From positions 1-6,888 of the IMG/VR virus record IMGVR_UViG_3300002703_000260: a DNA stretch of 6,888 nucleotides; one strand, 5' to 3'. The DNA comes from a virus. The notes under the pieces were generated by a model. The model worked only from the letters and a program-made list of their open reading frames with translations. It was not told the origin of the DNA and did no database searches. The translations under genes and the position numbers were made by a program. This document shows, one piece after another, positions 1 to 6,888 of the stretch (position 1 is its first letter; each line of letters begins with the position of its first letter).

Positions 1-59
1 ATTATGCGAAGCGCCCAATCTGAATGGATCACCACAGGTGGCCGGGTTTGCCGGTTCCG
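1..59. repeat. Left copy of the 59-bp exact direct terminal repeat (identical to 6830-6888)
   Basis: Base-by-base comparison: attatgcgaagcgcccaatctgaatggatcaccacaggtggccgggtttgccggttccg occurs at both window ends. Confidence 0.97.
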
Positions 60-1306
60 ACGACGACGAGATCGGATTGCCGGGATGACGCCTGCCCGGT
101 TCCCCGCGGCACGCCGCTTGGGGAACCTGACAGGCTATTGACCGTGCGTTCGTTGACTCGGCCCTTGAGGTCGAGCGGCCATGTCCGGGCAACATGGGAA
201 ACGCCCTGTTTTTCGAGCAGCAGCCCGTAACCGGTTCGTGTGACGGTCCAGCCCATGGCCTCGATCTCACGAACGTACATGCGTTCCTTGACGTTGTAGG
301 AGCTGTCGAGCAATTCGATCTGGCCCATAAGGCGCTTACCTTCCTTCTGGCTGTCGATGATGCCGGTAGCCCTAACGGTGTACTTCTGCGCGAGATTGTC
401 CAGGTAGTCGATTGCATGCACCTCGTCGCCCTGGTCGGCAGTTGGCGATGACTGGGCAACGTGCAACGTTGGCGGATCAGGATTGACGAGACCAGCCGGA
501 GGCTGTTCATAAACAACAGGTGCAGCCTTGGCGACAGTGACCTTGGTGGCCGGCTCAGAGTTGACGGGACCGCTACCGCCGAAGAAGCCAATGAGGTGAA
601 ACACGGCATAGCCGGCAAGAACGAAGGCAGCAGGAACGCCCATGGCAAGTGCTCTGGAGTTCTTGAGGACGTTTGTGCGGCCGGTCTGGTAAACGCCAGT
701 GCCTACGCCTTCACGGCGGACGGACGAGTAAAGACCAAAGTATTTCGAGTCATACGAACGGACCCCCGAACCGATCTTCACAAATCGGCCCTTGGCTTGC
801 TTCTGCAGCTGCTCCCACTTGTACTGATTGGGACGCCCAACCGCCTGCAGCTTGAGGAAGTAAACAATGTCCTCAATTCGGCTGCGGATGATCTTGTGCA
901 CGTCATCGCGGTCCTGACCCATGATGACGATTTCAAGCCCGCGATGCCGATGCTCGGTCCAGAACTTCTGCTGATTGAGAGGCAGCTTGTAATTACCGCT
1001 CGGAAAATAGTCCTGAATCTCGTCCCAGACGATCATCGCGTTATCGGGCGTACGATCGGCGAACTCGTTCTTCACGCGCTCAATGTCGGCGGCCTCCCCG
1101 TCCTGCTCGGCCGGCTCGATGTACAGCAGCAGCATGCGGACATACTCGACAGGCTCGTCCAGTAGCTCAGCGAACTTGTCCCAGTTGACGCCGCGAATAT
1201 TGGTAATAACCTGCCGTCCGGACTTGAGAGCGGGCAGGATGTGATAGACGCATGCTTCGTAACTCTTGCCAGCGCCCGGCAAGCCTTCGTGAAAGTGAAT
1301 AGCCAT
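29..1306 (-). CDS. zot: Zot / pI-family phage assembly ATPase, 425 aa from the ATG at 1306
   Basis: N-terminus MAIHFHEGLPGAGKSYEA carries a Walker A motif (GAGKS) and a Walker B-like MIVWDE. A single central TM (VPAAFVLAGYAVFHLIGFF) is followed by a C-terminal domain. It is the last gene of the morphogenesis block. The track start at 1312 is TTG; the ATG at 1306 overlaps the upstream stop as TAATG. Confidence 0.85.
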   Translation of the reverse strand: MAIHFHEGLPGAGKSYEACVYHILPALKSGRQVITNIRGVNWDKFAELLDEPVEYVRMLLLYIEPAEQDGEAADIERVKNEFADRTPDNAMIVWDEIQDYFPSGNYKLPLNQQKFWTEHRHRGLEIVIMGQDRDDVHKIIRSRIEDIVYFLKLQAVGRPNQYKWEQLQKQAKGRFVKIGSGVRSYDSKYFGLYSSVRREGVGTGVYQTGRTNVLKNSRALAMGVPAAFVLAGYAVFHLIGFFGGSGPVNSEPATKVTVAKAAPVVYEQPPAGLVNPDPPTLHVAQSSPTADQGDEVHAIDYLDNLAQKYTVRATGIIDSQKEGKRLMGQIELLDSSYNVKERMYVREIEAMGWTVTRTGYGLLLEKQGVSHVARTWPLDLKGRVNERTVNSLSGSPSGVPRGTGQASSRQSDLVVVGTGKPGHLW

Positions 1307-1599
1307 TACCAACGCCCCAGAGTGATGGCCTTGCGAGCAAGGCGGAAAAGGACAGCAGCAAGCAGGATGCCGAATGCCTGGCTTATGCCGGACTGGCTGA
1401 GGAAAAACCCGATGAACTCCATCGTTGGGCCGAGATGGTCGCTGATCGAAGTGCCCATGAAGTCAGGGGGTTGGATAGTGCCGAGAACCTCAAGCACACC
1501 GTCAAGGAACTTCTTTAGGAGCTGGATCGGCAGGTCGGCAAGGTACTCGGTAAAGTCATCCCAAAGGCCTTTCCAGAATTCAAGCGTAAAGATTTCCAT
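1306..1599 (-). CDS. g6-like minor coat / small membrane protein (97 aa), by its position between the adsorption protein and Zot
   Basis: ATG at 1599 preceded by GAGGTG. Hydrophobic C-terminal half (FIGFFLSQSGISQAFGILLAAVLF). The stop TAA shares one base with the zot ATG. Function is assigned by synteny only. Confidence 0.6.
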   Translation of the reverse strand: MEIFTLEFWKGLWDDFTEYLADLPIQLLKKFLDGVLEVLGTIQPPDFMGTSISDHLGPTMEFIGFFLSQSGISQAFGILLAAVLFRLARKAITLGRW

Positions 1600-1607
1600 T
1601 GCTCACC

Positions 1608-2990
1608 TCACAGGAACGCAATGCGGAATGCGAGAAAAGACGCAGCAGCGATGATGACGGCTGCAATTGCGGACCACGGAATGTCACCGGTGCAGAACTG
1701 GTCAAAGTCGAAGTCAAAGACCCACGTTGAAACACTCCAGCGCGGGCATGCGCCAGAAGCGTTAAACGTGAGGAACTTCGTTGTTTGCACACTTACGGGC
1801 AACAACTGAACCTTCTGCGAAAATTCGGTCAGCACGCTTCCGAACGTGTCCTCACCCGGAGTAAACCAATCTTGTGCGCCAACTTCTGAACCGCCGGGAC
1901 CGCCGGGAAGGCCGCCGCCACAATTGCCCGTTGCACAATCACCGAAGCCGTCCCCATCCGCGTCAGGGTTTGAGGACTTATTTGGACAAAGCGGGCCGGT
2001 ACAGGTTGAGTTAGAACCCGTAGTCTGCCCATTTGCATTCTTTGTTGTGGTGGTGGTAACGGTCGTGGTGGTAGTCGTACAGTTTTTTATGCCCTTACAG
2101 GTGGTGCTAGTTGCGGTGTCGGTTTTAGTTGTGGTCGTAGTGCCATCAGGATTTGTCTTTGTAGTCGCCTCAGTCCTGATATCAATGCCGTTTTTGTCAG
2201 GGGCTTTAGGAACACATGTTCTAACCCCATTAACCTCGCCGCATGACTCCCCGGTATTTTCTTCGCTTTTCTTGGACTCGCAAACTTGCTTGTCACCAAC
2301 GGTTGTATATACACAAGGCTTTTCTTCTTTAACGGTTTCAGGATCAACCGAGTCGCTTACGTCTTCTGCAACCTCAGTACCGGTTCCAGTTGTAGAGCAC
2401 TGCTGTCCGGTATAGCCCATGAGGCCACGGCAAAGGTAAGGGCCTGCGGTGAACGTCTTACACCGGAGATCGGTTATCTCAACAGCGCAACCGTCCTTAC
2501 AGCCTTGACGCTGCGGAATGCCATAGCCGCCTGACGATATGTTCATAAAGTTGTCAGGCGCTGTGCCAGCCCTAGAAAAAGGAGCCTCAAGGCCCTCTTT
2601 ATCCTTACAGGGATTAACCGGAACATCGCACTTGCCAAGAGCGGGATCATATTGAGCGCCACCGGGGCATGAATCACCAGTACGGCTGACAGAGCCAGTG
2701 AAAGTGGCGATATTGCCATCGGATAAACGGCGAACCCTTACGACGCAGGTGAATGAAGCGGGATTCGACGTAGCACTTAACGTGTGCGAGTCATAAACAC
2801 TGGTGCCCTGAGGATGTACGTAAGACTTAGCACCGACAGAACATGCTTCTTCAGCAGATTGAAACTTAGTAGAACTACCGACAGTGAATGTGGTAGCAGG
2901 CCGAATAAATGAGAATTCGTAATCGACCGCAAACGCAGGCACCGAAATTAACGAGAGGACAAGAAGCCCGAGATAATTGCCCAAGCGCAT
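1608..2990 (-). CDS. g3p/CoaA-like adsorption (minor coat) protein, 460 aa from the ATG at 2990
   Basis: The ATG at 2990 is preceded by a GGGGGG RBS and followed by a signal peptide MRLGNYLGLLVLSLISVPAFA/VD. The protein has 22 Cys, a Thr-rich linker (about 1995-2174), a Gly-rich linker (about 1887-1958) and a C-terminal TM anchor (AIAAVIIAAASFLAFRIAFL). The track's longer ORF to 3128 would overlap the coat gene and is Arg-rich. Confidence 0.75.
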   Translation of the reverse strand: MRLGNYLGLLVLSLISVPAFAVDYEFSFIRPATTFTVGSSTKFQSAEEACSVGAKSYVHPQGTSVYDSHTLSATSNPASFTCVVRVRRLSDGNIATFTGSVSRTGDSCPGGAQYDPALGKCDVPVNPCKDKEGLEAPFSRAGTAPDNFMNISSGGYGIPQRQGCKDGCAVEITDLRCKTFTAGPYLCRGLMGYTGQQCSTTGTGTEVAEDVSDSVDPETVKEEKPCVYTTVGDKQVCESKKSEENTGESCGEVNGVRTCVPKAPDKNGIDIRTEATTKTNPDGTTTTTKTDTATSTTCKGIKNCTTTTTTVTTTTTKNANGQTTGSNSTCTGPLCPNKSSNPDADGDGFGDCATGNCGGGLPGGPGGSEVGAQDWFTPGEDTFGSVLTEFSQKVQLLPVSVQTTKFLTFNASGACPRWSVSTWVFDFDFDQFCTGDIPWSAIAAVIIAAASFLAFRIAFL

Positions 2991-3048
2991 AACGCCCCCC
3001 AAAAGAACAGTCCGAATTGAATGAGCATGTTTGATCCTCAGAAACGAT

Positions 3049-3070
3049 GAAGGCCCCCGAAGGGGCCTCC
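3049..3070 (-). terminator. Hairpin terminator candidate just downstream of the major coat gene
   Basis: AGGCCCC-cgaa-GGGGCCT forms a 7-bp GC stem (3051-3057 with 3062-3068). On the minus strand it is followed by TCATCGTTTCTG. The position matches the terminator after g8 in Ff phages. The T tract is weak. Confidence 0.5.
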
Positions 3071-3091
3071 GGCGAGGCGACAGCGTGGTTC

Positions 3092-3226
3092 TTAACGGAA
3101 CCAGCCGATGACCTTGTTGAAGCCCCATTTGGCGACGCCGGGCAGAACCTTGATTGCAGCGATGGCAGCAATAGCAGCCACGATAGTGGAAGCGTCAACA
3201 GCACTTACGATGGAAGAAAAGTCCAT
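3092..3226 (-). CDS. Major coat protein, 44 aa, Pf3-like architecture without a signal peptide
   Basis: Hand translation gives MDFSSIVSAVDASTIVAAIAAIAAIKVLPGVAKWGFNKVIGWFR: acidic N-terminus, about 20-aa hydrophobic core, basic/aromatic C-terminus. A GAGGAG RBS lies 8 nt upstream. The gene sits between the ssDNA-binding region and g3p. It is below the ORF-track size cutoff. Confidence 0.8.
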   Translation of the reverse strand: MDFSSIVSAVDASTIVAAIAAIAAIKVLPGVAKWGFNKVIGWFR

Positions 3227-3509: not shown

Positions 3510-3809
3510 TCAGCCGGCAACCTTGGCAGGGGCGACGGCAGCGGGCGCCGGGTTAGCAATGCGGCGGGCTTGGCGCGGGTCCACCTCGAAATGGATGCGG
3601 TCATCCTTGATCGAGCAGCTGACGTCGCACTCGTAATGGCCGACCGGCAAAACTTCGTTCTGAGAGGCGGCGTAGTAGCTGAACTTCTGCGGATACGGGA
3701 CGCCCGGCAGATGCGCATAGGCTTCGGCCATCCAGTAGGCCTTTTGCGACTTGGTGGCGATGCCGGTACGGAAGTTGCCGGTGGTTTCGATCTTGATAGT
3801 CATAGCCAT
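3510..3809 (-). CDS. g5p-like single-stranded DNA-binding protein (99 aa)
   Basis: AAGAGG RBS 8 nt upstream of the ATG at 3809. Size, position after Rep and the small ORFs, and the pattern AYAHLPGVPYPQKF...LPVGHYECD resemble OB-fold helix-destabilising proteins of Pseudomonas/Xanthomonas-type inoviruses. This resemblance is from memory. Confidence 0.65.
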   Translation of the reverse strand: MAMTIKIETTGNFRTGIATKSQKAYWMAEAYAHLPGVPYPQKFSYYAASQNEVLPVGHYECDVSCSIKDDRIHFEVDPRQARRIANPAPAAVAPAKVAG

Positions 3810-4177: not shown

Positions 4178-4344
4178 TTGGCACCCCGACGCTTCGGCGA
4201 TGTTTCAACACGAACGCAACGGGCGAACTCAGCCTCGGTGAAGTCGGCCCAGTCAGCTGGCGTGTGATGGATGCCGGCTTGCTTGCTGTACGCCTTGATC
4301 AGGCGATCACGGTTTGCGCCTTTCCACAGCAGGAAAGCGTTCAT
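4174..4344 (-). CDS. 56-aa basic protein coupled to Rep, with an HMG-box-like signature
   Basis: The ATG at 4344 overlaps the rep stop as ATGA. Sequence: MNAFLLWKGANRDRLIKAYSKQAGIHHTPADWADFTEAEFARCVRVETSPKRRGAK. The upstream part of the track's 126-aa ORF overlaps rep out of frame and is discounted. Confidence 0.55.
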   Translation of the reverse strand: MNAFLLWKGANRDRLIKAYSKQAGIHHTPADWADFTEAEFARCVRVETSPKRRGAK

Positions 4345-5471
4345 GCGGCCACCTGCAGATGGTTCGGGCGCTGATACCAGCTCGGGATGGCCAGCACGGT
4401 CGACTTGGTGATTTCGCGGGCCTGACGGACGAAGACCGGCGCGAAGCGCGAGGTATCGCAGGCGTTGCGAATGTTGATGCCGATGCGGTTGAGGCGAGCG
4501 GCGTGGGTCTTCACGGCAGACTTGTCGAAGTCGAACTGTTGCCCGTGCATCCACTGAATCGCATACATGGCGGTGGTATTTGCTGCACGGGTGGTGTCTA
4601 CGATCTGCTCAGCCAAGAGCTGTTCGGATATGGAAACGATGTCCATGGCGGTCACCTTCAGTCGCTCGTCAATTCTCAAAAACTCGTCGTGGAGTTCGGC
4701 AAAACGCCGCTCGTCAAAGAGGCCCCAATAGGCCAAGCATTCGCGCTGCAAAAATTCGTTTTTCAGCTCCTGCTCCATCCGAACCACGCCATGAAGGGCG
4801 CAGTAGTCGCGGACGCGCTGCACGTACAGGAACTCGGGAGATTCATCGCCGTACAGGCGCTTGATCTTCGGGAGCAGGTTCTCGTCCAGCTCGAAAGCCT
4901 TGTCGTAGGCCTTGCGGTACTGGAGGCGCCCGCCTTTGCCGTTGCCCTTCGGGGTCCATGCGACGGTGCGGCCGTTGGGATACAAGAAGCCGATGCTGTG
5001 CCCGATGCGCTGGGAGGACACACCGCGCAGGTAAGCCAGCACATTGCCCTCGCCTACCGATACGTTCGTGGTGAGATCGATGCGCTCGATCTTGGCGCCG
5101 TCTGCCACACGATCACCGGTCTTTGCACCTGATGCGCCGTCCCGCAGATCAACACGGGTGCAGCGAGTGAAGCCCGGCAGACCGTACTCAGCCAGAAGCT
5201 GGTTGTAGACCGAGACACACTGCTCGATGGTCGAGAAGCCGAACAGGTTATCGAGGCGCCCTACCCGGCTTGGGTTGCCCTCGACGCGGATTTTCCGCCC
5301 CTGCACATGGATCGTGACCGACGTGGAATAGCTGGCCTCATGCTTGAAGCGAGGCTGACGGGTGGAAAGCACCTCATTGGTGTTCGTATCGATTGTGATC
5401 GTCATCACATCGCACACGACCGGAAGATCGTGAGTGTGCTCCTGTGAGATCGTAAGCCAATCGATGAACAT
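4341..5471 (-). CDS. Rolling-circle replication initiation protein (gII / Rep_trans / phage CRI-like), 376 aa from the ATG at 5471
   Basis: MFIDWLTISQEH N-terminus, VEGNPSRVGRLDNLFG, RIDLTTNV and a RKAYDK (YDK Tyr) motif are typical of filamentous-phage and Rep_trans initiators as I recall them. It is the first and largest gene of the train. The track start at 5486 is TTG and remains possible. Confidence 0.8.
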   Translation of the reverse strand: MFIDWLTISQEHTHDLPVVCDVMTITIDTNTNEVLSTRQPRFKHEASYSTSVTIHVQGRKIRVEGNPSRVGRLDNLFGFSTIEQCVSVYNQLLAEYGLPGFTRCTRVDLRDGASGAKTGDRVADGAKIERIDLTTNVSVGEGNVLAYLRGVSSQRIGHSIGFLYPNGRTVAWTPKGNGKGGRLQYRKAYDKAFELDENLLPKIKRLYGDESPEFLYVQRVRDYCALHGVVRMEQELKNEFLQRECLAYWGLFDERRFAELHDEFLRIDERLKVTAMDIVSISEQLLAEQIVDTTRAANTTAMYAIQWMHGQQFDFDKSAVKTHAARLNRIGINIRNACDTSRFAPVFVRQAREITKSTVLAIPSWYQRPNHLQVAA

Positions 5472-5507
5472 TCCATTTCCCGTCAAGGTCCATAACCTGA
5501 CTGCGAA

Positions 5508-5561: not shown

Positions 5562-5566
5562 TATAT

Positions 5567-5578
5567 TGACGCTGGTCA
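5567..5578. promoter_or_regulatory. Second short palindrome TGAC-gctg-GTCA
   Basis: It shares the TGAC/GTCA ends and 4-bp spacer of the 5544-5561 palindrome and lies just upstream of the XRE RBS. Confidence 0.3.
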
Positions 5579-5595
5579 AACATACAGGAGTGATG

Positions 5596-5970
5596 ATGCT
5601 CGGCAACGAAGAACCACACGGCGGCGACTCCATGACAATCGGCGAGAACCTAAAGCGGGCGCGGGCTGCAGCAGGACTGACCCAGCAGCAGGTGTGGGAG
5701 GCTGCCGGCATGTCCGAGTCCGCGTACAAAGGCTATGAGAAAGGCGAACGGCCACCACCAGGGGACAAGATCGCAGTCCTTGCCCGCGTGCTCGGGGTCG
5801 CAACTGACGAATTGCTGCTAGACGAGGCAGAGCGAAGCGGCAGCGCAGAATTCAGGGCGATGTGGCGCCGACTAGAGATGCTCCCCGAGGACATGCGTGA
5901 GCAAGCGAAGATCGCGATGCGGGGCGTGCTCATGAGCATCGAGCAGGAAGCGCTGAGGAAGGCGGGATAG
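5596..5970 (+). CDS. XRE/Cro-CI family HTH transcriptional repressor (124 aa from the ATG at 5596)
   Basis: IGENLKRARAAAGLTQQQVWEAAGMSESAYKGYEKGERPP...LARVLGVATDELL is a classic HTH_XRE pattern, followed by a helical extension of about 50 aa. AGGAG (5586-5590) lies 5 nt before the ATG at 5596. The track start at 5566 is TTG and sits inside the operator region. Confidence 0.8.
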   Translation: MLGNEEPHGGDSMTIGENLKRARAAAGLTQQQVWEAAGMSESAYKGYEKGERPPPGDKIAVLARVLGVATDELLLDEAERSGSAEFRAMWRRLEMLPEDMREQAKIAMRGVLMSIEQEALRKAG

Positions 5971-5971
5971 G

Positions 5972-6151
5972 ATGAAGTGGATTTTGATCATATACCTCGG
6001 CGCCGCTACAGAGCCGACCGTCATCGTTGATTCATACGAGTCAGAAGCTCAGTGCGGCATCGCAGCAGACCTGATCATCGCCGCCGACATCGCAGCTAGA
6101 GGGTCAGAGAGTGACTACTCGACAGTCTGCCAAGAACGGATGAAATCCTAG
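5972..6151 (+). CDS. 59-aa hypothetical protein coupled to the repressor gene (MKWILIIYLGAATEP...)
   Basis: Hand translation. The ATG lies 1 nt after the XRE stop, with GAGGAAGG upstream. GC3 is about 64 percent. The N-terminus is hydrophobic and signal-like, and there are two Cys. One residue below the track cutoff. Confidence 0.45.
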   Translation: MKWILIIYLGAATEPTVIVDSYESEAQCGIAADLIIAADIAARGSESDYSTVCQERMKS

Positions 6152-6154
6152 GGC

Positions 6155-6200
6155 TGGTACGGGAATCCATACCAAAGTGGGGGTGTAACAGCACCCCCAC
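6155..6200. other. Two adjacent stem-loops at the start of the intergenic region
   Basis: Hairpin 1, 6155-6174: 7 bp with one mismatch and a GAAT loop. Hairpin 2, 6177-6200: GTGGGGGTG-taacag-CACCCCCAC, 9 perfect bp. On the minus strand hairpin 2 is followed by TTTGG, so it may terminate minus-strand transcription. Confidence 0.5.
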
Positions 6201-6526: not shown

Positions 6527-6757
6527 TTAGAGCTGGTTGATTCGCTCAGCGATCTGCCGCAACTCATGCAGGACGGCATCGAGCTGGGCACCTTCGTCGT
6601 CGAGCTGGGCGACTCGCTTTCTCAGATCGCGGATCTCGGCGACCAGTCGCGGGTAGTCGTCGAGTATCCACGTCACGGCATCGGAGCCCTTGCGGCCCGG
6701 CGCATACAGTTCAGCGGTTTTGATCAGGCGGGATTCGAGGTCGATAGCGCATCGCAT
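6527..6757 (-). CDS. Hypothetical 76-aa coiled-coil protein
   Basis: ATG start, high GC3, heptad-like C-terminal half (LVAEIRDLRKRVAQLDDEGAQLDAVLHELRQIAERINQL). No family recognised. Weak RBS. The start codon lies inside dif-like site 1. Confidence 0.55.
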   Translation of the reverse strand: MRCAIDLESRLIKTAELYAPGRKGSDAVTWILDDYPRLVAEIRDLRKRVAQLDDEGAQLDAVLHELRQIAERINQL

Positions 6758-6776
6758 AATCGAGCCTATGTTACGC
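6749..6776 (+). other. dif-like XerC/XerD site 1 (6-bp central region)
   Basis: GCATCGCATAA-TCGAGC-CTATGTTACGC compared with E. coli dif GGTGCGCATAA-TGTATA-TTATGTTAAAT. The inner cores CGCATAA and TATGTTA are conserved. Confidence 0.6.
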
Positions 6777-6809
6777 GACGCCCGGAGCCAGAGGCATTGT
6801 CCGGACGCC

Positions 6810-6841
6810 GCTCAACATAAGCTCAGGCCATTATGCGAAGC
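6810..6841 (-). other. dif-like XerC/XerD site 2, inverted orientation, 10-bp central region
   Basis: The minus strand reads GCTTCGCATAA-TGGCCTGAGC-TTATGTTGAGC. The XerC arm TTCGCATAA plus TG matches the gammaproteobacterial dif variant, and 11 of the 15 nt of the Xanthomonas phage attP core TATACATTATGCGAA (as recalled) are present. Confidence 0.6.
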
Positions 6842-6888
6842 GCCCAATCTGAATGGATCACCACAGGTGGCCGGGTTTGCCGGTTCCG
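6830..6888. repeat. Right copy of the 59-bp terminal repeat, including a duplicate of the zot 3' end (6858-6888)
   Basis: Identical to 1-59. It ends at the window edge, so the redundancy may be longer in the source. Confidence 0.97.

Follow-up and report, generated by a model that had tools for sequence, protein, structure and literature searches.

The window (the whole stretch of DNA that was analyzed, 6,888 nt) very probably represents the genome (6829 nt) of a filamentous phage (inovirus) that lacks an integrase and infects a Pseudomonas-like host, with region 6747-6843 serving as a CTXphi-type attachment site. Because this region holds an inverted pair of dif-like sites that forms a hairpin, no integrase is encoded, and an identical phage was found at a bacterial dif site, the integration of this phage is almost certainly CTXphi-like. 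It is a further case of CTX-type integration, of the kind already proposed for YpfPhi and CUS-1.

Genome and genes of the phage

Positions 1-59 of the window are identical to positions 6830-6888, and the unit is therefore a 6829-nt circle or a tandem junction. The start of the window coincides exactly with the predicted crossover point. Two contigs (L106 and L107), which are circular or tandem, carried the same zot-to-hairpin junction as the window with 100% identity. The following features were assigned outside the attachment region or at its border.

1..59, no strand given: terminal overlap (same sequence as 6830-6888), with the site 2 XerC arm repeated at bases 1-12
29..1312, minus strand: Zot-type assembly ATPase (Pfam Zot, E = 5e-32); on the circle, the last gene ahead of the hairpin
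4341..5486, minus strand: rolling-circle replication initiator (Rep) of the G2P/Phage_CRI type (Pfam)
5566..5970, plus strand: RstR-like helix-turn-helix repressor, divergently transcribed (Pfam HTH_31 and HTH_3)
6527..6757, minus strand: conserved 76-aa gene (phrog_13909), with its ATG inside TTATGCG, the complement of the site 1 XerC arm

Scans of every sizeable ORF on both strands against Pfam, PHROGs, and NCBIfam found no integrase, resolvase, or transposase, in agreement with the first-pass annotation, which had noted the absence of recombinase and transposase genes. No DUF3653 match, as expected of an activator of the XafT kind, was found among the ORFs of the window. The repressor covered the full NCBIfam phage_RstR profile with an E value of 1e-18, and its score of 67 bits was below the 80-bit cutoff. 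An exact look-up of the Rep protein gave no match, and the 76-aa protein matched only designed coiled coils, or had no match at all, in PDB, Pfam, and NCBIfam. In a megablast search against GenBank phages, only a partial match to "Phage silverpheasant213" was obtained, and the record of this phage carries no att annotation.

Two inverted Xer sites and their fold

The first-pass annotation had placed two inverted XerC/XerD-like sites, with spacers of 6 nt (plus strand) and 10 nt (minus strand), between the zot stop codon and the 76-aa gene. Both sites were present where it had placed them, and site 2 lies on the minus strand, which is the gene-sense strand, as had also been claimed. The ATG of the 76-aa gene (6757) falls within the 3' arm of the hairpin, and the region is therefore not purely intergenic. 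The parts of the attachment site are as follows.

6747..6843, minus strand: attP(+), the complete attachment site as folded, which is a bulged hairpin of 97 nt (identified from inverted repeats, ssDNA folds, and covariation in 26 homologous hairpins)
6749..6776, plus strand: site 1, attP2-like, short spacer; XerC arm GCATCGCATAA at 6749-6759, central region TCGAGC (6 nt) at 6760-6765, XerD arm CTATGTTACGC at 6766-6776; its complement is the bottom strand of the stem
6777..6809, minus strand: apical part between the XerD arms, which, joined by the 2 outermost nt of both XerD arms, forms a 12-bp stem and a simple loop
6810..6841, minus strand: site 2, attP1-like, long spacer, the top strand of the stem; XerC arm GCTTCGCATAA at 6841-6831, 10-nt central region TGGCCTGAGC at 6830-6821, XerD arm TTATGTTGAGC at 6820-6810
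6830..6831, minus strand: predicted XerC cleavage and strand-exchange point, between CGCATAA and T; also the end of the terminal overlap of the window

The pattern CGCATAA-N(6-11)-TATGTT occurred twice, against an expectation of 0.00 from 200 shuffles. Two inverted repeats were found in the region, one of 14 nt with 93% complementarity (6747-6760 with 6830-6843) and one of 25 nt with 80% complementarity (6762-6786 with 6800-6824).

Folding of both strands as ssDNA, which had been suggested as a check, gave stable structures, and the sense strand was the more stable one. The fold energy was -29.4 kcal/mol (z = -5.0) for the plus strand, whereas the minus strand gave -36.7 and -36.4 kcal/mol (z = -6.8 and -8.3). 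The sense-strand structure was a single unbranched bulged hairpin and not the forked hairpin described at first; the fold of CTXphi, in contrast, is branched. In the stem, the XerC-arm duplex contains one T.T mismatch. The central region spans 6 positions, and its unpaired part is only a 4-nt bulge (GGCC) on the site 2 strand, directly after the first T. The XerD arms of the sense strand are paired over 8 consecutive positions, G.T pairs included, followed by one unpaired A, beyond which the pairing continues into the apical stem of 12 bp. Positions 8-9 of the XerD-arm duplex are a G.T pair and an A/G mismatch. From the pairing scheme given earlier, the apical 12-position stem was recovered, but the XerD arms pair over 8 positions instead of 6 and the unpaired center is reduced to the 4-nt bulge.

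Conservation of the hairpin in relatives

More than 100 related loci were retrieved, and about 50 distinct hairpins of the same design were found in these relatives. The covariation alignment consisted of 26 type-A hairpins, and the spacers of the longer type-B hairpins were read by eye. In the alignment, 97.1% of the cells were paired compared with 84.9% after shuffling, and 17 of 32 pairs showed double compensatory changes; the observed values were reached in none of 500 shuffles. Controls with a slid register showed only 29 to 39% pairing. The apical stem, which also holds conserved bases, showed double compensatory changes in 9 of its 12 pairs (alignment columns 32-43 with 59-70), and such changes extended beyond the apex through the Xer arms and the central stem. 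Three enterobacterial loci (L015, L018, and L019), with Rep proteins 47 to 49% identical, had the same hairpin design. In addition, an ORF of 76 to 81 aa begins at the hairpin ATG in 20 of 27 type-A hairpins.

The sense strand was the more stable strand in 46 of 49 hairpins, with a mean advantage of 4.6 kcal/mol (P = 2.5e-9). This difference arises from conserved G.T pairs, a pattern that points to selection on one strand only.

The backbone of the window resembled that of L026, and its attP module resembled that of L033.

Integrated copies at dif

An exact match to the 76-aa protein led to a metagenome contig (L105) that carries a phage copy 100% identical to the window unit (6829/6829 nt), integrated at a perfect 28-bp dif site. 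At attL, the host XerC arm ACTTCGCATAA is joined to the phage long spacer TGGCCTGAGC and the hairpin. At attR, the phage XerC arm GCTTCGCATAA is joined to TCTATA TTATGTTAAAT. The hybrid junctions lie exactly between CGCATAA and T, which places the crossover within 6830-6840, where the XerC arm of site 2 borders on its spacer. The flanks of the contig encode DUF1652 and DUF2790 proteins (Pfam), which we take to be typical of Pseudomonas. In a sequence search, these flanks matched only the flanks of other metagenome prophages.

The same attL and attR layout was observed in 14 further relatives (L001, L006, L010, L011, L012, L017, L019, L021, L024, L026, L030, L031, L033, and L041), so that in all of these copies both half-sites are kept at attL and dif is regenerated at attR. 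More than 12 integrated relatives, found in Pseudomonas, Aeromonas, Marinobacterium, and Pectobacterium, have perfect 28-bp dif sites. The attR junction always has the host central region, and the XerC arms of attL and attR differ where host and phage differ; the polarity of the exchange is therefore XerC-side. Tandem copies were present at L007, L009, L014, and L016/17, and the copy in L105 is single; CTX-type elements integrate irreversibly, and their phage is produced by rolling-circle replication of tandem arrays. The first-pass annotation had suggested a search for phage copies next to dif with hybrid junctions, and L105 and its relatives are such copies. It had also named prophages at tRNA genes or near an integrase, and junctions outside 6749-6841, as findings that would speak against it; no copy adjoins a tRNA gene or an integrase, no tRNA gene was found near the L105 prophage, and the junction is inside that interval.

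The integrated copies were also compared with the dif type of their hosts. The second base of the site 1 central region was G in seven copies and T in one copy from hosts with a TGTATA dif, and C in all seven copies from hosts with a TCTATA dif. It was thus identical to the host dif base in 14 of 15 integrated copies (P = 5.8e-4, Fisher's test), a small sample in which the copies are phylogenetically related. The corresponding base of site 2 did not follow the host dif (P = 0.57; 15 related copies). In the window, the first two bases of the site 1 central region (TC) are those of the host dif central region TCTATA. This pattern would not be expected unless the partner strand comes from site 1. 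Since the host dif type (TG or TC) follows the site with the short spacer and not the cleaved one, the folded form is favored as the substrate. A point against the model is that, in TCTATA hosts, the phage top strand and dif share only one base (T) past the cleavage site, fewer than in CTXphi El Tor (TGT).

Proposed integration mechanism

We infer from the CTXphi system that ssDNA is the substrate, that XerC alone performs the catalysis, and that the junction is resolved by replication. In the packaged strand, presumably the gene-sense (minus) strand of the window, site 2 with its 10-nt spacer would pair with the complement of site 1 with its 6-nt spacer. The resulting stem would imitate dif, with an XerC-arm duplex, a bulged central region, and an XerD-arm duplex. 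By analogy with CTXphi, this stem and the chromosomal dif site would both be bound by host XerC and XerD. XerC would then cut after CGCATAA in the top strand of each partner, and one pair of strands would be exchanged. The incoming dif strand (5'-TC...) would be stabilized by pairing with the bottom strand derived from site 1, and the pseudo-Holliday junction would be turned into a prophage via replication or repair. The left end of the prophage would retain both half-sites and, as duplex DNA, would no longer be a substrate. The right end would regenerate a working dif site, at which more copies or other elements could insert to produce tandem arrays.

Alternative explanations

Prophage junctions, taken alone, look alike under integration of the hairpin and under double-stranded integration via site 2. 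Integration by double-stranded site 2 alone, in the manner of VGJphi, would thus give the junctions seen at site 2, and the complementarity of site 1 would then have another role, for example in packaging, as an origin of the minus strand, or in RNA folding. In filamentous phages, both packaging and synthesis of the complementary strand depend on hairpins (PMC preprint 10.1101/2023.12.30.573655), and the conserved bases in the apical stem are consistent with such a use. However, the site 2 counterpart has a spacer of 8 to 13 nt in all relatives compared with 6 to 7 nt at the partner site, and a spacer of that length, read as duplex DNA, would be outside the usual 6 to 8 bp of Xer sites. The host dif type follows the central region of site 1 and not that of site 2, the compensatory changes cover the Xer arms and the central stem in addition to the apex, and neither duplex site of CTXphi is a substrate (PMC4246890). 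This explanation is, in our judgment, very unlikely. Another reading is that the hairpin merely terminates transcription downstream of zot, forms a 3' structure of the mRNA there, or is a palindrome that arose by chance, and that its likeness to dif is incidental. On the sense strand, it is located 14 nt past the stop codon of zot, and an RNA structure would show a preference for this strand as well, with G.U pairs that would favor the sense RNA too. However, no T-run is present behind the stem, a terminator scan gave no match there, no Rfam match was found, and the chance expectation of the sites is 0.00. This explanation, to which we give next to no probability, is already contradicted by the identical phage, which is integrated at dif and has its junction within an arm of the hairpin. 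A terminator and a known RNA family were rejected for these reasons, as was tRNA targeting for want of a tRNA gene.

The folded site may instead arise by cruciform extrusion in the supercoiled replicative form, which is double-stranded, and not on free phage ssDNA. The inverted repeat is long and stable enough for extrusion, and integron attC sites, which are also folded recombination sites, use both the ssDNA and the cruciform routes. Sequence alone does not separate these two sources of folded DNA. However, a cruciform would have its weaker hairpin in the antisense arm, with the mean difference of 4.6 kcal/mol given above, and the conserved G.T pairs show that only one strand is under selection. 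Experiments on CTXphi support the ssDNA route (PMC3089051, which cites Val et al. 2005). We therefore consider the cruciform, too, to be very unlikely.

Implications

These results extend the ssDNA host-recombinase strategy of CTXphi to a large, previously undescribed group of small Pseudomonas-type inoviruses, with relatives in Aeromonas, Marinobacterium, and Pectobacterium. The mechanism was earlier backed mainly by experiments on one phage, and evolutionary evidence is added here in the form of compensatory change, one-strand preference, and a base that tracks dif. The copies also provide a rule for prophage borders, which run from the host XerC arm to the hairpin, the prophage, and the phage XerC arm joined to dif; such borders are often broken by automated tools and assemblers. 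The dif variant that a given phage can target becomes predictable and directly testable.

It is also quite possible, although we propose this tentatively, that the CTX-type ssDNA attP is a compact portable module of about 85 to 110 nt, and not a curiosity of Vibrio and enterobacteria, which moves between inovirus lineages with unrelated replication genes. One or two bases in the half-site with the short spacer (TC or TG dif) would then determine the host range. A second function of the hairpin is also possible, since it contains the start codon of the 76-aa gene, which is located where other phages have Xer activation factors.

Comparison with known systems

The VGJphi-type phages and the Xanthomonas phages of the phiLf/Cf1c/XacF1 type are also integrase-less inoviruses that use host XerCD and dif. 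Unlike the window phage, they have one double-stranded dif-like site with a near-normal spacer, two usable sites flank their prophages, and they encode an activation factor, either XafV or a DUF3653 protein of the XafT kind. Assignment to the VGJ-type IMEX was rejected because two inverted sites are present, the crossover site has a spacer of 10 nt, and this abnormal spacer is retained at attL. The TLC-type IMEX, defined by a degenerate XerD arm, XerD-side exchange, and XafT/DUF3653, was rejected because the crossover is XerC-side and no DUF3653 match was found.

Pf4, Pf5, and Pf6 are likewise filamentous phages of Pseudomonas, but all of them encode a tyrosine integrase and target tRNA, tmRNA, or direct-repeat sites (PMC7549136). 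An integrase-type Pf prophage was rejected since the window has no integrase, L105 has no tRNA gene, and the target is dif. The first-pass annotation had attributed a single double-stranded dif-like attP to Xanthomonas and Pseudomonas phages alike, which is correct for the former but not for the integrase-bearing Pf phages. A described Pseudomonas inovirus of the CTX type or dependent on XerCD was not found in searches of the literature; the PMBT54 phage was judged episomal in its paper, and the UPphi paper does not discuss hairpins.

The inverted XerC/XerD pairs of YpfPhi (Yersinia pestis) and CUS-1 (E. coli K1) have been proposed to be CTXphi-like (PMC4266046, PMC3089051, and PMC3442271). 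As compared by their descriptions, both are non-Vibrio inoviruses found at dif, often in tandem, with an RstR-like repressor in the same position. They differ from the window phage in their enterobacterial hosts, their genomes of 7.1 to 8.7 kb, and extra ORFs at both ends. Because the CTX-type design had already been proposed outside Vibrio for these two phages, the window phage is less unusual than the first reading implied.

The closest model is the attP of CTXphi, a CTX-type IMEX of Vibrio cholerae (Val et al. 2005; PMC3089051, PMC4246890, and PMC3442271). The CTXphi record, examined and folded here, showed the same orientation and fold logic in a branched form. Both phages lack a recombinase gene, carry two dif-like sites, of which the long-spacer one is on the sense strand and the short-spacer one is in the opposite orientation, and have an RstR-like repressor divergent from and beside the replication gene. 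In the attP(+) of CTXphi, one XerC-arm position is also mismatched, a small loop follows directly after the first T of the top strand, and two adjacent XerD positions are non-Watson-Crick (PMC3442271). The CTXphi logic that had been recognized at first thus matches the published architecture, including the arm mismatches and the loop by the cleavage site. The XerD arms are nearly the same, with TTATGTTGAGC/CTATGTTACGC in the window and TTATGTTGAGG/TTATGTTACGG in CTXphi, and the site 2 arm matches that of CTXphi attP1 (PMC3089051) at 10 of 11 positions. In both, the half-sites are kept at attL, dif is regenerated at attR, and compatibility with dif is set by the short-spacer site.

The two phages differ in spacer lengths (12 and 7 in CTXphi [PMC3089051] compared with 10 and 6 nt in the window), in the distance between the sites (about 90 nt compared with 33 nt), and in the hairpin itself (about 150 nt and forked compared with 97 nt and unbranched), since the apical part at 6777..6809 replaces the approximately 90-nt forked region of CTXphi. 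The conserved 76-aa gene begins inside the hairpin only in the window, whose host is Pseudomonas-like with a TCTATA dif central region. The window phage also has a Zot only 24% identical to that of CTXphi, no toxin cargo, and a G2P/Phage_CRI Rep in place of an RstA-like one. This Rep showed no similarity to CTXphi RstA (E = 18), and the window phage is therefore not a taxonomic relative of CTXphi. Altogether, the phage works like CTXphi and stands outside its lineage (genus Affertcholeramvirus), which is characterized by an RstA-type Rep and overall gene homology.

Genome organization of the phage

The first 59 nt of the window are repeated at its end (1-59 = 6830-6888), and thus the unit is a 6829-nt circle or a tandem junction. 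Its gene content is of the inovirus type, with nearly all genes on the minus strand.

29-1312, minus: Zot-type assembly ATPase
1306-1599, minus: minor coat protein
1608-3128, minus: large adsorption-type protein
3092-3226, minus: major coat protein (Inovirus_capsid)
3510-3809, minus: ssDNA-binding protein
4341-5486, minus: G2P/Phage_CRI rolling-circle initiator (Rep)
5566-5970, plus: divergent HTH repressor; best NCBIfam match, the RstR family, below cut-off
6527-6757, minus: 76-aa helical protein of unknown function (phrog_13909), with its ATG inside TTATGCG
6749-6776, plus: site 1, short spacer, GCATCGCATAA TCGAGC CTATGTTACGC
6810-6841, minus: site 2, long spacer, GCTTCGCATAA TGGCCTGAGC TTATGTTGAGC

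The repressor aligned over the full NCBIfam phage_RstR profile (E = 1e-18; 67 bits, cut-off 80 bits). Directly after it lies a 59-aa ORF (5972-6151, plus strand), which was also called in L105, a metagenome contig with an identical integrated copy of the phage. Profile scans including NCBIfam matched no window ORF on either strand to an integrase, resolvase or transposase, in agreement with the first-pass annotation that the unit lacks a recombinase or transposase gene. The packaged strand of filamentous phages has the sense of the structural genes; the packaged strand here is therefore presumably the window minus strand.

A perfect hairpin was also observed at 6177-6200 on the minus strand (9 bp, 6-nt loop; GTGGGGGTG-CTGTTA-CACCCCCAC). 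Of 104 fetched loci, 71 contain it unchanged, and in the loci checked it lay on the Rep-sense strand about 350 to 550 nt upstream of Rep, even at 74 to 84% Rep identity. Its probable function is that of the plus-strand origin or nick site or, alternatively, of a packaging signal.

Folding of the two inverted sites

The two inverted XerC/XerD-like sites lie exactly where they had been annotated. A loose dif-like pattern matched twice in the window, compared with 0.00 matches in shuffled sequences, and the attachment region contains inverted repeats of 14 nt (93% complementarity) and 25 nt (80%). When both strands were folded as ssDNA, a stable hairpin (6747-6843) was found, and the sense strand (-36.4 to -36.7 kcal/mol, z -6.8 to -8.3) was stronger than the antisense strand (-29.4 kcal/mol, z -5.0). 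In the sense fold, pairing extends over the XerC arms, interrupted by one T.T mismatch, and includes the first central T; a 4-nt bulge (GGCC) comes next, on the site-2 side only. The central stem pairs TGAGC with GCTCG, the duplex of the XerD arms includes a G.T pair and leaves one A unpaired (positions 8 and 9), and the structure is capped by a 12-bp stem with a simple loop. The fold is thus a single bulged hairpin and not the forked one that had been proposed. The ATG of the 76-aa gene, at 6757, is inside the 3' arm.

Integration at dif

The 21.9-kb contig L105, which encodes the 76-aa protein, contains the whole 6829-nt unit at 100% identity (9929-16757). The left junction joins host ...TCTGACTTCGCATAA to phage TGGCCTGAGC TTATGTTGAGC and the remaining hairpin; the right junction joins phage ...GGGCGCTTCGCATAA to TCTATA TTATGTTAAAT and host sequence. 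These sequences indicate that the prophage is inserted within a 28-bp dif site, the dif of P. aeruginosa being GATTCGCATAATGTATATTATGTTAAAT (PMC2731167). The host contributes the XerC arm at the left of the prophage and the central region plus XerD arm at the right. The crossover lies within the common CTTCGCATAAT (window 6830-6840), inside the interval 6749-6841 to which the first-pass annotation had confined the junctions. That annotation had named a non-dif locus, such as a tRNA gene, as evidence against its reading; the prophage is at dif, and a scan found no tRNA gene on the contig. In addition, the junction from zot to the hairpin, as in a circular or tandem form, is present at 100% identity on the short contigs L106 and L107.

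The predicted hybrid attL/attR junctions were found in L105 and, with the same layout, in relatives from named genomes and viral contigs.

L006: Pseudomonadaceae MAG
L010: Aquipseudomonas alcaligenes
L011: P. mosselii
L012: P. lundensis
L001: another Pseudomonas sp.
L019: Pectobacterium
L021: Aeromonas rivuli
L016/17: Marinobacterium, two tandem copies
L024, L026, L030, L031, L033, L041: viral contigs

Where the XerC arms of host and phage differ, as in Marinobacterium (ACTTCGTATAA vs GCTTCGCATAA), attL has the host version, and attR and the internal tandem junctions have the phage version. Many short contigs start or stop at CGCATAA/T(GT), like the window, whose 59-nt terminal overlap ends exactly at CGCATAA/T; independent contigs of relatives that start or end within a few bases of this point are L002-L005, L008, L013, L015, L018, L027, L045, L049, L069, L072, L083, L089, L093, L094 and L097. 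These breaks likely reflect assembly branching between phage-phage and phage-dif junctions. Altogether, the attachment region is almost certainly the XerCD/dif integration site of the phage, with the crossover at site 2.

The dif central region is TCTATA in the hosts of the closest relatives (L105, 16746-16773; L024, L025, L026, L030, L031, L033, L041, L052 and L080), TGTATA in the named Pseudomonas genomes and P. aeruginosa, TATATA in L082 and TGTGTA in L102. The L105 host flank (61.5% GC, with DUF1652 and DUF2790 genes) is syntenic with those of L030, L041, L048, L059 and L033. Leftover sequences were observed between prophage and dif in two genomes. L001 (16437-16749) contains a 285-nt unit composed of a complete hairpin and about 200 nt, whose terminal catccaagggtaCGCATAA is also found at the end of the prophage, and L006 (15494-15702) contains a 185-nt piece without a hairpin, resembling the right end of L024-type phages. 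Such pieces may have been left by earlier insertions, or they may be miniature satellites.

Conservation of the hairpin among relatives

With the Rep protein as query, 22 loci were obtained from reference genomes, together with 80 viral contigs (77 to 99% identity). Thirteen of the 22 loci were from Pseudomonas/Aquipseudomonas (74 to 84%), and relatives at 46 to 51% were found in Aeromonas, Marinobacterium, Pectobacterium, Lelliottia and Kluyvera. Where the sequence upstream of the repressor was part of the locus, a hairpin of the same design was almost always present, namely CGCATAA, T plus 7 to 12 nt, a TTAYGNT-type arm, a stem-loop, the complementary arm, 6 to 7 nt and TTATGCG. About 50 distinct hairpin sequences in two size classes were obtained.

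For 26 hairpins of the window's size class, RNAalifold recovered the same structure, and 17 of 32 pairs showed changes on both sides with pairing kept. Paired cells amounted to 97.1% (84.9% when shuffled) and doubly changed cells to 88 (23 when shuffled), values reached in none of 500 shuffles; control registers slid by 1 to 3 columns gave only 29 to 39% pairing. The compensatory changes run through the central stem, XerD arms and apex, thereby indicating that the conserved feature is the pairing and not just two protein-binding motifs. Owing to several conserved G.T positions, the sense strand was more stable in 46 of 49 hairpins (mean 4.6 kcal/mol, p = 2.5e-9). Such a bias suggests that one strand is the folded species, although a sense RNA would also give it.

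The folded strand as the probable integration substrate

The prophage junctions alone do not discriminate between the folded form and duplex site 2. In every relative, however, the cleaved site has a spacer of 8 to 13 nt and its partner one of 6 to 7 nt, and dif-like spacing of the two arms is reached only in the folded stem. This spacing and the compensatory pairing of sites 1 and 2 both favor the hairpin as substrate. So does the specificity of site 1. Two host dif types, TGTATA and TCTATA, occur in the integrated set, and the second base of the site-1 central region was G in 7 of 8 TGTATA hosts and C in 7 of 7 TCTATA hosts (Fisher p = 5.8e-4), whereas the second base of site 2 did not track the dif type (p = 0.57). 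The central region of site 1 in the window begins with TC; the dif that harbors the integrated copy is of the TCTATA type. The CTXphi model requires base pairing between the bottom strand of the stem and the dif strand that XerC has released. CTXphi variants targeting dif1, dif2 or difG are set apart by variation in the short-spacer attP2 (PMC3089051). Because the sample is small and includes related copies, the correlation is supporting evidence rather than proof.

Integration through duplex site 2 alone is disfavored by both the spacer length of site 2 and the site-1 signal. The folded site could also arise as a cruciform extruded from the replicative form; the selection on one strand counts mildly against this route. 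A terminator or RNA element was not supported (no T-run, scan match or Rfam match) and cannot account for the dif junctions. We regard the folded single strand as the likely substrate, as in CTXphi. A second, putative role of the hairpin in packaging or complementary-strand priming is possible.

The 76-aa gene and apparent exchange of the attachment module

The ATG of the 76-aa gene lies in TTATGCG, which is complementary to the site-1 XerC arm. Among hairpins of the window's size class, 20 of 27 have an ORF of 76 to 81 aa starting at this ATG; among the longer ones, none has. The gene occupies the position of the Xer activation factors in TLCphi and VGJphi; its product matched no DUF3653 or HTH domain. 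Viral contig L026 covers 91% of the window at 94% identity with a different hairpin type, whereas contigs L033 and L023 share the hairpin and 76-aa gene (570 nt, about 96%) and little else. Judged from these alignments, the window is a mosaic, and the attachment module appears to have been exchanged between phages.

Comparison with CTXphi and other systems

The CTXphi sites are attP1, AGTGCGTATTA TGTGGCGCGGCA TTATGTTGAGG, and attP2, AATGCGTATTA TACGCCA TTATGTTACGG (PMC3089051). The CTXphi record places attP1 on the gene-sense strand and attP2, in inverted orientation, about 90 nt further downstream; dif1 is at the far prophage end. In its computed ssDNA fold, the XerC arm and first T are paired, 5 top-strand nt are bulged, and the XerD arm is paired with a mismatch at position 9, followed by a fork. 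The XerC-arm mismatch, the small loop by the cleavage site and two adjacent non-Watson-Crick XerD positions described for CTXphi (PMC3442271) are all present in the window hairpin, and the XerD arms differ at 1 and 2 of 11 positions. In contrast, the window has shorter spacers (10/6), a simple 33-nt apex and a total length of 97 nt, its replication module is unrelated (Rep against RstA, E = 18), and its Zot is only 24% identical. The phage probably works like CTXphi but is outside the CTXphi lineage. Tandem copies of a relative (Rep 51% identical) are found in an Aeromonadaceae MAG (L014, 9344-9461 and 15035-15152). The two sites of this relative have spacers of 12 and 7 nt, XerC arms of the CGCATTA type and, as XerD arms, TTATGTTGAGG/TTATGTTACGC, a pair almost equal to attP1/attP2.

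The CTXphi-type interpretation of the first-pass annotation is supported apart from the forked shape, and the design has precedent outside Vibrio. Reviews list RS1, YpfPhi and CUS-1 as CTX-type and describe the attP sites of CUS-1 and YpfPhi as having features that would allow ssDNA to integrate directly (PMC4246890, PMC3089051, PMC4266046). A single duplex dif-like site serves the Xanthomonas phages (preprint 10.1101/2023.12.30.573655), and the classical Pf phages of Pseudomonas have their own integrases (PMC7549136). In the literature searched, no Pseudomonas inovirus was described as CTX-type or XerCD-dependent, an absence that is not proof. The mechanism itself is not new; the phage is a solid, widely distributed further example of CTX-type integration, providing useful comparative evidence and a testable rule for dif specificity.
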